Source: Escherichia phage EC22.5-2. From it: a DNA stretch of 42,480 bases. The DNA lies in the sequence record OR845139. One strand, 5' to 3'. The position numbers and the translations under genes were made by a program. The notes beneath the pieces were generated by a model that searched no databases, was not told the DNA's origin, and worked only from the letters and a program-made list of their open reading frames with translations. Of this stretch, positions 3,844-6,587 are shown piece by piece (the first letter of the stretch is position 1; the number at the start of each line of letters is the position of its first letter).

Positions 3844-5553
3844 ATGCAAGAGACTAACAAAGTAACCGTAGATGCAAACGTACCTGCAAATGTACCTGCC
3901 TATGAGGGTTGGACCATCAAATTTCCAGAAGGGGCCAATGCCCTTCCACTGAAGGATAGTATGTACTCTTCCGGGGATTACTGGTGCCAGCTTCCCTACC
4001 TATCAACTCAAGGCCGTGCGCGCGTGCAAAGTAACAAAACCCGTGCGCTTTTGAATGGCTTTTATATGTTGTCAAGGGTGCTGCCGGGGTATCTTGTAGC
4101 ACTCGGCAACTTTACAGATGCAGGAGAGGATTTGGGTGGGGATGTTGGGCCGCTGGGCACGGTTGATATTAGTGATACTCTCCTGCATAGGCTCTTTGAC
4201 TGTGCAGGTACCTGCGGCCAAGCATTCGGTTTATCTAGAAGAACCTTCTATGATGGTCCTGACGTAGTTACAGAACGTGTAGTAGAAGCGGTCCAATACT
4301 TTACCGGATACAAGGTGCACAAACAGGCTATAGAGTTGTTCGAAGAGATGATGCTAACACCTACTCACTCCCTCCGGGCCAAATACCTTTGTGGGTACAG
4401 TGTGTATGATGGGGATTACTGGGCAGTAACCTTGCTTATGAAGTTGCACGGGTTCGTGGTGTCTAGATTTGCAATCCCACTGGGTTTCGGCTTCCGCAAC
4501 GGTGAGCCTGTAGTAATGCTGGGGCAGCCGCGATTACACAAAGACTACGCCGCTGTTACTGAGTATCGCTGTGTAGAGATGCGGGCAGGCAAGTGGCTCG
4601 CTAATTATTACGGAAGCGGTGTAGACTTCCGGGAATGTATTGAAGACCTCAAGGCTATGAACGTGGAGCCTACTACATATCTTTGTAAGACCGAACGGGA
4701 GTGGTACAACGCATACGAGAATGGCCCTAGTAGCTGCATGACCGGATACGACTTCGAGGCTAGCCCGGTGCGTGTATATGCCACGACTAGTCACGGCTTG
4801 CCGGATAATGGGCTGCGCTTGTTCATCCAGTATACGGGTGAACTTTTTGGTGATGACTTTAAAGTGCACGCCCGCGCTATCGTTAACATCGAAACCAATG
4901 AATACGTCCGTGCATACGGGGATGCTGCGGACGCCATTCTACGTGCTAATGGGTATGAGCGCGATACAGATTGCTTAGATGGCGCACTACTGGCACGCAT
5001 TCCGCACCCAGAGGATGAGGGTGCCGTGCTTATGCCATACTTGGATGGGAACCAAGACGGGGTGGATGAAGAAGGGGCAGACGCGTTTCGCATCTGCGCC
5101 TGCTACGACTATGAAGCACAGGACGCTGACGGGTATATTTGGATTGATGGTCGCAGTGCTTGTGCAGAGTGCGGGGGACGTTTCGACGAGGATGACATGT
5201 ACAGAACTTGTGACGGTGGTTATGTATGCCCGCACTGCATCGGTGGTACTTACGTACAGGTAGTAGGACGCAGTCGGGTATATCCAACATGGGATTGCTC
5301 GTGGTCTGACTACCAGGATTCTTGGGTATTCGACTGTGACGTAGAACATTGTGCTATAGAGGGTATAGTGTATGATGAAGAGCCAATGGTGTGCGCACAA
5401 GGGTACAACGTTCTGAGTGGGCATGCCGAAGAGCACCCAGTGCACGGTATGATTCTCACAGAGTATGCTGCGTCCGTATTGGATGAGCCCTACCTCGGTA
5501 ACGAAGAAGCCGAAGAAGACAAAGAAGCTAAAGCAGAACAGGAGGCAGCTTAA
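3844..5553 (+). CDS. Large hypothetical protein with Cys-rich C-terminal region (CxxC pairs) and acidic tail; start uncertain (3550, 3787 or 3844)
   Basis: Long ORF; ggaga RBS 8 nt before ATG 3844; C-terminus contains CAEC, CPHC and further Cys/His clusters; ends EEAEEDKEAKAEQEAA. Confidence 0.55.
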   Translation: MQETNKVTVDANVPANVPAYEGWTIKFPEGANALPLKDSMYSSGDYWCQLPYLSTQGRARVQSNKTRALLNGFYMLSRVLPGYLVALGNFTDAGEDLGGDVGPLGTVDISDTLLHRLFDCAGTCGQAFGLSRRTFYDGPDVVTERVVEAVQYFTGYKVHKQAIELFEEMMLTPTHSLRAKYLCGYSVYDGDYWAVTLLMKLHGFVVSRFAIPLGFGFRNGEPVVMLGQPRLHKDYAAVTEYRCVEMRAGKWLANYYGSGVDFRECIEDLKAMNVEPTTYLCKTEREWYNAYENGPSSCMTGYDFEASPVRVYATTSHGLPDNGLRLFIQYTGELFGDDFKVHARAIVNIETNEYVRAYGDAADAILRANGYERDTDCLDGALLARIPHPEDEGAVLMPYLDGNQDGVDEEGADAFRICACYDYEAQDADGYIWIDGRSACAECGGRFDEDDMYRTCDGGYVCPHCIGGTYVQVVGRSRVYPTWDCSWSDYQDSWVFDCDVEHCAIEGIVYDEEPMVCAQGYNVLSGHAEEHPVHGMILTEYAASVLDEPYLGNEEAEEDKEAKAEQEAA

Positions 5554-6587
5554 TGTATGGTGTTGACCTTAAACTACTGACAAAGATACTAACAACGCAC
5601 CGACCTAGCTGGGGCAGTACCAAATGGTTTGAGCCTCTTCTTAGTGGTGCTCTTGCCAATGCAGAGCACTATGTAAGGGATGCGCACGGTAACTACTTTG
5701 TGCTAATTGGTAACTCTGAACAGAGTGATGTAGCATTTACTTCACATCTCGATACAGTGGCCCGGCCTGGTAGTGCTGCGCCGGACATTGCAATCACTAA
5801 CAAGGGTGTAATGTTCCTGCGGAATCCACAGGTGGCGGATTGTCTAGGTGCAGACTGTGGTGCTGGTATCTACCTGATGCTGGAGATGATTAAGCGGGGA
5901 GTACATGGACGTTACTGCTTCTTCGTGGATGAAGAGGTAGGCTGTGAGGGTAGCAGTGCATCCGCCAAAGATGACACTGGCTTCTGGACTGGGGTCAAGG
6001 CAATGATTAGCTTTGACCGCCGTGGAGATGGGATCATTACGCATCAACGATACCAACGTTGCTGTTCTGATACGTTTGCAAAGGAGCTGGCGACCCGATT
6101 AGGACGAACGGATGCGCACTTACAGAAAGGGGTATACACGGATTCCGCTGAGTTCATGCAGATTATCCCAGAATGCACTAACATAGGCGTAGGGTACATG
6201 CACGAACATACTCCGGATGAGGTGCTGGACCTTAGCATTCTTGGCAGCGTACTGGAGCACGTACTTAGTCCTGGTGCATTCAAGCACCTGCCGATTGAGC
6301 GTGATCCTAAAGTAGTGGAACCAGATGCGTGGTTATCTGCCTATACGCACCCCCTAACGATGCCATTGGATGTTCCCCCTGCGGAAGATCCGCATTTACT
6401 AGCAGCATTTAAGGAGGTGTCACAACTTTCTAAGCAGCAACTGATTAGCTGGGTGCTAGATAACCCAGCAAGGGCGGCAGAGTACATCATGGTGTATTCT
6501 GATTATGGCTTCAAAGAAGAACTGATTGAACTAGGCACCCGAGTTGTAGAGGACTGGGGTGGATACGATAATATTGTGGAGGGTTGA
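5553..6587 (+). CDS. Putative zinc metallopeptidase-like protein (clan MH, M20/M28-like motif pattern)
   Basis: Ordered motifs SHLDTV (HxD), LGADCGAG (metal-bridging Asp context), FVDEEVG (Glu-Glu), later His-rich GYMHEH; TAATG coupling, aggagg RBS. Confidence 0.45.
   Translation: MYGVDLKLLTKILTTHRPSWGSTKWFEPLLSGALANAEHYVRDAHGNYFVLIGNSEQSDVAFTSHLDTVARPGSAAPDIAITNKGVMFLRNPQVADCLGADCGAGIYLMLEMIKRGVHGRYCFFVDEEVGCEGSSASAKDDTGFWTGVKAMISFDRRGDGIITHQRYQRCCSDTFAKELATRLGRTDAHLQKGVYTDSAEFMQIIPECTNIGVGYMHEHTPDEVLDLSILGSVLEHVLSPGAFKHLPIERDPKVVEPDAWLSAYTHPLTMPLDVPPAEDPHLLAAFKEVSQLSKQQLISWVLDNPARAAEYIMVYSDYGFKEELIELGTRVVEDWGGYDNIVEG

Follow-up and report, generated by a model that had tools for sequence, protein, structure and literature searches.

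The window analyzed here, a 42,480-nucleotide stretch from Escherichia phage EC22.5-2 (sequence record OR845139), carries a peptidase gene on the + strand at positions 5553 to 6587. A sequence-only reading of this DNA had proposed an open reading frame there, and the ORF list contained it at exactly these positions, running from ATG to TGA and encoding 344 aa. The gene belongs to the block that precedes the primase and helicase genes and shares the orientation of its neighbors. It sits among early and replication genes. Directly upstream is a 667-aa ORF (3550..5553, + strand; phrog_6980), referred to below as the partner, for which M99 (nt 3844) is the probable true start; gene callers begin its orthologs at MQETNKV. 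The partner stop codon overlaps the peptidase ATG (TAATG, 5551-5555, read directly as GGAGGCAGCTTAATG), and a GGAGG ribosome-binding site precedes this junction. A promoter and terminator scan of positions 1..9000 returned no more sites than shuffled sequence, and none at the partner–peptidase junction. The protein encoded downstream of the peptidase (150 aa) gave nothing usable against Pfam, PDB sequences, or NCBIfam.

The peptidase gene is 95.5% identical in DNA to a gene annotated as "peptidase" in Escherichia phage Minorna (Autographiviridae, Slopekvirinae, Drulisvirus), and the window likewise belongs to Drulisvirus. The ortholog is gp48 in Minorna, where the order of large hypothetical protein, peptidase, and primase is the same as in the window, and gp11 in KP34; PhiM1_10 is also an ortholog, all under PHROG 4191. 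These are the same gene as that of the window, with no substantive difference, and Drulisvirus orthologs showed ~77–98% protein identity to it. DNA-level matches were present in 203 phage records, mainly Klebsiella KP34-like phages, under the labels "peptidase", "putative peptidase", and [quoted passage not shown]. With tblastn, a relative was identified in 388 phage records, including Klebsiella, Pectobacterium, Vibrio, Bacillus, and Thermus phages. Because these relatives belong to other phages, with just 9 Escherichia records among them, T7 and its close relatives lack the gene, and it was correctly described as lying outside the T7 gene set. In the literature, KP34 gp11 was named a putative peptidase as of 2011 (PMC3082699), and the peptidase is in the core gene list of KP34-like viruses (PMC4411677). 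In PhiM1-like Pectobacterium phages, a peptidase (IPR007484) was the sole gene with an assigned function before the primase (PMC6115819). The peptidase finding is therefore already known as an annotation in databases and literature and is not new. Functional experiments on the peptidase or its orthologs were not found in the searchable literature, where mentions were at the level of annotation only.

The translation contains SHLDTV, LGADCGAG, and FVDEEVG followed by a His-rich segment, all in the order that the sequence-only reading had described. SHLDTV (aa 64-69; 5742..5759, this and all following motifs on the + strand) aligns with PepT HMDTV and supplies the putative metal ligand H65 and the second-shell residue D67. 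LGADCGAG (aa 98-105; 5844..5867) aligns with PepT LGADDKAG and holds the predicted bridging ligand D101, while FVDEEVG (aa 124-130; 5922..5942) aligns with PepT GEESG and provides the candidate general base, E127, and the metal ligand E128. The segment YTDSAEF (6135..6155) aligns with GGGSDAN of 3gb0, and its T196-D197 loop is the counterpart of the GG(S/T)D loop of M20 and M42 enzymes. GYMHEHTPDE (aa 214-223; 6192..6221), which aligns with PepT VGYEEIHTTNE, contains the fifth metal ligand, H219, along with invariant Y215 and E223. The His-rich segment was borne out only in part: H219 is conserved as a ligand, but H217 varies, so that H219 alone is conserved there. A further motif, FDRRG (aa 154-158; 6012..6026), was missing from the earlier list; homologue conservation marks it as the site of the fourth metal ligand, D155, followed by the family-specific R156.

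Conservation was counted in 263 family members pooled from two database searches. The metal ligands, whose variation among homologues had been named as one of two points that would speak against the assignment, were retained: H65, D67, D101, E127, E128, D155, and H219 occurred all together in 261/263 homologues, and the two exceptions were N-terminally truncated fragments. By site, D101 was present in 262/263, whereas the E127-E128 pair, D155, H219, and D197 were each found in 263/263; R156 was found in 261/263. Residue 102 was D in 186 of the 263 and C, as in the window, in 75. Several nearly or fully invariant positions are specific to this family (R156, Q165, S172, T196, D197, N210, Y215, and E223, together with the cysteines C170, C171, and C208), and these residues presumably line the substrate site.

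Profile searches supported the reading of this protein as a clan MH zinc peptidase. The best PHROG match was phrog_4191, "peptidase" (E 8.5e-144). Pfam M28 (PF04389) scored 22.3 bits against a gathering threshold of 21.3, a marginal match that joined residues 53-160 to profile positions 8-98 of 193 and so covered the N-terminal half of the model only. Pfam M20 (PF01546; 17.1 vs. a cut-off of 24.6), Pfam M42 (PF05343; 13.0 bits vs. 23.2), and the PepT-like model TIGR01883 (15.3 vs. 274.25) all remained below threshold. The profile check proposed in the earlier reading came out with M28 above its cut-off and M20 and M42 below theirs, and neither of the two outcomes that were to count against the assignment was observed. 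Among 94 homologues at E<0.01, 73 matched M28 (best E 3e-8), 15 matched M20, and four matched M42. A profile of the same 94 homologues searched against the PDB matched the PepT-like tripeptidases 3gb0 (E 8e-15) and 3rza (E 8.9e-15), and the M42 enzyme TET1 at E 4e-7. The structure check pointed the same way: an AlphaFold2 model built on the 94-homologue alignment was confident (pLDDT 88.2, pTM 0.78) and showed one confident alpha/beta catalytic domain, and a Foldseek fold search agreed with clan MH.

The modeled protein consists of three parts. An alpha/beta catalytic domain of the clan MH type occupies aa 1-245 (5553..6287, + strand) and carries no lid or dimerization insert. It is followed by a low-confidence linker (aa ~250-279, 6300..6389, +; pLDDT 46-72) and a C-terminal helical bundle (aa 280-343, 6390..6584, +; helices at pLDDT 78-86), whose conservation, as judged by BLAST, is limited to close and intermediate relatives. 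Between D155 and H219, ligands four and five, lie just 64 residues, and in the alignment with 3gb0, ~35 residues of the query (~134-169) replace ~150 residues of the structure (~155-302). From this spacing and alignment it follows that the M20 lid and the M42 PDZ-like domain are absent, and the AlphaFold2 model has no second domain at the lid position. When 30 relatives of the peptidase with more than one domain were compared with Pfam, no fused domain recurred; a PcrA/UvrD tudor domain, a Por secretion tail, and DUF3244 were each hit once.

Within the MEROPS scheme, the fold is the alpha/beta catalytic domain seen in M18, M20, M28, and M42, and the predicted ligands follow the clan MH order of His, Asp (bridging), Glu, Asp/Glu, and His, with a general-base Glu just before the ligand Glu. 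The gathering score and the single catalytic domain uninterrupted by a lid between the fourth and fifth ligands resemble M28. The M20 score and inserted lid/dimerization domain were lacking, as were an M42 score above threshold and the PDZ-like dimerization domain. The motifs LGADDxAG, the TD loop, and GY..HT are nearer to those of PepT-like M20 and M42 enzymes. The family profile's match to PepT-like PDB entries at E 8e-15 indicates that the homology with M20 is real, yet the two are not the same family. Since the architecture is M28-like and the motifs are closer to PepT-like M20 and M42 enzymes, we place the peptidase, on its sequence and model, in clan MH as a separate lid-less family that would be a member of neither M20 nor M42; the M28 label is treated as a marginal Pfam assignment.

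No signal-like N-terminus was found in the peptidase, and no hydrophobic segment (the top 19-residue Kyte–Doolittle value was 1.2). Lacking a signal peptide and a membrane segment, the enzyme is predicted to stay in the cytoplasm. This speaks against a direct attack on the cell wall, whose peptides the sequence-only reading had offered as one possible target.

The family extends well beyond these phages. An exhaustive profile search returned 2,598 clusters (50% identity) at E<=1e-30 and 5,871 at E<=1e-10. Members were identified in jumbo-phage-like contigs of 100–200 kb, beside genes for Dam, AdoMet decarboxylase, NUDIX, PhoH, and CoaE, in Thermus phage P23-45 (gp56, "metal-dependent hydrolase"), in Bacillus phages, and in bacterial assemblies. 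The distant peptidases of the jumbo-phage-like contigs and the Thermus phage have no partner gene. Several bacterial loci with the peptidase are integrated T7-like prophages. Seven bacterial loci have in common a large conserved upstream protein and a conserved downstream protein; the scanned representatives were identified as a large terminase of the T7 type (PF22530, E 3e-38) and as a tyrosine integrase. Three loci found from the partner side each contained an integrase, accompanied by an RNA polymerase or a primase–helicase of the T7 type.

Clustering of the ORFs flanking the peptidase in bacterial loci yielded one recurrent neighbor, the gene directly upstream, encoding 405–768 aa. A profile of 15 such neighbors matched aa 340-629 of the 667-aa ORF upstream of the peptidase in the window with 110.8 bits, and the motifs YENGPxSCM, VRVYA, YGD, PYxD, and CxxCG...CxxC were common to the partners. 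Using HMMs of both families, we found the partner adjoining the peptidase in 20/34 bacterial loci as well as in Minorna. In the loci reached via the partner, the peptidase was directly downstream in 3/3. The same adjacency was seen in Vibrio and Pectobacterium phages, and the pairing recurred in T7-like prophages that are only distantly related and come from many bacterial phyla. One Mesorhizobium locus had two tandem partner–peptidase pairs, and in two short contigs the two genes were in reverse order. HMM searches found no fusion protein of partner and peptidase. One fusion of the peptidase with the downstream protein (P0054) was seen, and it looks like a local deletion. Across the sub-lineage, the pair was kept at 22–30% identity while other neighbors were lost or unconserved. 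Taken together, these observations make a good, though not conclusive, case for a functional link between peptidase and partner in this sub-lineage.

The partner's conserved core spans aa 340-629 (4567..5436, + strand) and includes YENGPSSCM (4714-4740), VRVYA, RAYGD, and MPYLDG. A CAECGG...CPHC zinc ribbon follows MPYLDG within this core (5161-5238, +). Residues C396, M397, Y410, R442, Y456, P496, and D499 are invariant among partners, and four more zinc-ribbon cysteines are nearly so. The core appears weakly GNAT-like, with the zinc ribbons in addition. Searches of the partner against Pfam, NCBIfam, PADLOC, and PDB sequences produced no match, except that the Cys-rich part weakly resembled a LIM-like zinc finger. 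PADLOC models also gave no match to the peptidase, the partner, or the downstream protein, so none of the three is linked to a catalogued defense system.

The partner of the window ends in EQEAA (5536..5550, + strand), with two alanines at the C-terminus. The EAA end occurred in 109/120 Drulisvirus partner orthologs, a conservation that alone proves little because the tail overlaps the ribosome-binding site. Among 120 diverse distant partner homologues, 53 ended in AA and 73 in A, and the most common C-terminal tripeptide was LAA (23/120, often as ...DLALAA). Other ORFs of the same loci, used as controls, ended in AA in 18/349 cases. The enrichment in partners over controls had an odds ratio of 14.5 (Fisher p 1e-21), calculated on sequences that are related to each other. 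We considered whether the -AA tail could arise simply because the ribosome-binding site and the start codon overlap this stretch. This was rejected as the sole cause, because alanine and stop codons vary in the prophages and several junctions have an intergenic gap. Of the short C-terminal degrons found in E. coli, ssrA-like tags have the greatest potency (PMC10862746). The tail may mark the partner for ClpXP, may be bound or cut by the exopeptidase encoded next to it, or may do both. A toxin–antitoxin-like arrangement, with a labile upstream protein and a stable downstream enzyme, was considered as well, and nothing was found that bears on it.

The interpretation we prefer, to which we give roughly even chances, is that the peptidase is an active cytoplasmic di-metal exopeptidase of the aminopeptidase type that acts together with its upstream partner. 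By analogy with PepT, TET, and M28 enzymes, H65, D101 (bridging), E128, D155, and H219 would hold two metal ions, a co-catalytic zinc pair that would activate a water molecule, and E127 would serve as the general base as a terminal amide bond is cut. The metal content, the hydrolytic activity, and the aminopeptidase specificity are what we infer from these relatives. As the nearest relatives in sequence and fold are amino-, di-, and tripeptidases, the enzyme may perform aminopeptidase-type trimming of peptide or protein termini inside the infected cell. The partner might deliver substrate to the peptidase or might be the substrate itself. This cooperation is suggested by the gene block of uniform orientation and the overlap of the start codon with the upstream stop codon.

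The protein could instead work like ArgE or DapE, as a deacylase or amidohydrolase whose substrate is not a peptide. It would then strip off an acyl or aminoacyl group that a GNAT/Fem-like partner would install or recognize, and the two would form a transferase–hydrolase couple; we regard this as unlikely. We hold a general role in peptide recycling, in which an aminopeptidase or tripeptidase would turn host peptides into amino acids for phage protein and adjacency to the partner would be inherited synteny, to be similarly unlikely. Its nearest relatives, PepT-like tripeptidases and TET aminopeptidases, would fit that role, as would the very large family with partner-free members in contigs of the jumbo-phage type and in phages of Thermus and Bacillus. 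However, inherited synteny sits poorly with a sub-lineage that keeps the pair at 22–30% identity when its other neighbors are lost, with a pair duplicated together in one locus, and with the occurrence of both gene orders; a nutritional peptidase would also seem to be of little obvious use to a lytic phage of 43 kb that completes its infection quickly.

That the enzyme hydrolyzes cell-wall peptides, whether the stem peptides of peptidoglycan or precursors of these, is very improbable in our view. DapE-like fold relatives act on a diaminopimelate precursor, and certain M20 and M28 enzymes can hydrolyze peptides that contain D-amino acids or gamma linkages, both of which lend this target some plausibility. 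Against it, a protein devoid of signal peptide and membrane segment could reach cytoplasmic precursors alone, and the gene has early and replication genes as its neighbors; the right end of the genome, where we would expect the lysis genes of phiKMV/KP34-type phages, is over 30 kb away. Least probable of all is a catalytically dead pseudo-peptidase with a scaffold or binding role only. Clan MH does include non-catalytic members, such as the transferrin receptor, and the M20 lid, absent here, is regarded as necessary for catalysis. Yet 261/263 homologues, many of them below 35% identity, keep all five ligands as well as the general base and the second-shell Asp, and such invariance is the pattern expected from purifying selection on catalysis.

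A more specific version of cooperation between the two proteins is improbable. The two genes would form a dedicated early-gene system of T7-like phages and prophages that edits protein termini; in it, a partner with a GNAT/Fem-like transferase fold, equipped with zinc ribbons and ending in an ssrA-like -AA, would act alongside the lid-less di-zinc exopeptidase. If true, N- or C-terminal degrons could be made or erased, and proteolysis by host ClpXP and ClpAP thereby redirected. Alternatively, the peptidase may trim the tail of the partner itself and so control how long the partner lives.

The peptidase belongs to the core early genes of Drulisvirus, a genus whose phages are widely put forward as therapeutic agents for Klebsiella and E. 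coli. Taken alone, the sequence-only finding repeats the existing annotation and leaves the picture unchanged. What goes beyond it is the lid-less architecture and the conserved pairing with a partner bearing an ssrA-like tail. The former makes this large family a natural version of the M20/M42-type catalytic domain with the lid left out, and raises the question of how substrate is held. The latter offers an experimental handle on this core gene and a concrete route to a possible role in host takeover.

Several known enzyme systems are close to the phage peptidase. The PepT-like M20 tripeptidases (3gb0, 3rza; TIGR01883) have an inserted lid/dimerization domain of ~100–150 residues that the phage protein lacks, and the phage protein has an extra C-terminal helical bundle relative to them. 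In the M42 TET and glutamyl aminopeptidases (2cf4, 1ylo, 3cpx), a PDZ-like dimerization domain, likewise missing from the phage protein, builds the TET particle of 12 subunits. The M28 aminopeptidases, such as Aeromonas AAP (1rtq) and Streptomyces SGAP (1cp7), are among the closest known systems. The partner tail can be set beside the ssrA tag, whose core is a C-terminal LAA; the tail in the window is EAA. A catalytic-domain-only DapE has been engineered (4h2k) and is presumably inactive, since the lid supplies catalytic residues. That protein is an artificial truncation, whereas the phage family is lid-less by nature and has invariant residues of its own (R156, Q165, S172, N210, Y215, and E223).

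The uncharacterised partner gene directly upstream of the peptidase gene was called as a 667-aa ORF (3550..5553, plus strand), whose first 83 codons are shared, in a different frame, by a conserved 114-aa ORF (3453..3797; phrog_6167). Gene callers begin the orthologs of the large partner protein at MQETNKV, which corresponds to nt 3844 in the window, and a start there removes the overlap with the phrog_6167 ORF (region 3550..3844). Therefore, the true partner start is probably nt 3844, giving a product of 569 aa.

Mesorhizobium sp. STM 4661 (L017) carried two tandem partner-peptidase pairs (4514..6906 and 8649..11371) in a single prophage-like region. 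In the 636-kb uncultured phage LR756504.1 (tblastn match H80), the peptidase matched at eight distinct sites, which suggests an expansion of paralogues in this huge phage.

In Escherichia phage phiHAO78-1, a close relative, a free-standing HNH endonuclease gene (L045 2513..2980) was inserted where the peptidase gene ends (3′), overlapping its final 20 nt. Klebsiella phage phi1_146024 likewise carried an HNH gene at this site; the window contained none. Fusion with a homologue of the downstream 150-aa protein (6590..7042) was seen in one metagenomic protein of 353 aa, P0054, in which the catalytic domain of the peptidase is linked to that homologue's C-terminal half (43% identity, E 9e-9). P0054 probably arose by a deletion that fused the two neighbouring genes. 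Many of the longer peptidase relatives (P0141-P0261, 480-715 aa) had long N- or C-terminal extensions for which Pfam returned no match. Isolated domains, each a single case, were a PcrA/UvrD tudor domain and a type IX secretion sorting domain.

The partner C-terminus (window 5536..5550) ends in -AA, an ending well above expectation in this protein and its distant homologues (loci L008-L044): 53 of 120 partner homologues terminated in AA, compared to 18 of 349 control ORFs. LAA was the most frequent C-terminal tripeptide among the 120, and codon usage at the tail differed between homologues. In sequence, the tail resembles an ssrA/ClpX degron.

At the residue following the bridging Asp, Cys (GADCGAG) was found in the Drulisvirus clade (75/263 homologues), while homologues outside it carried Asp (GADDxAG; 186/263). 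C102 (codon 5856..5858) is a Drulisvirus-specific substitution adjoining the metal site; the M20-type tripeptidase PepT has GADDxAG with Asp, as do the non-Drulisvirus homologues.
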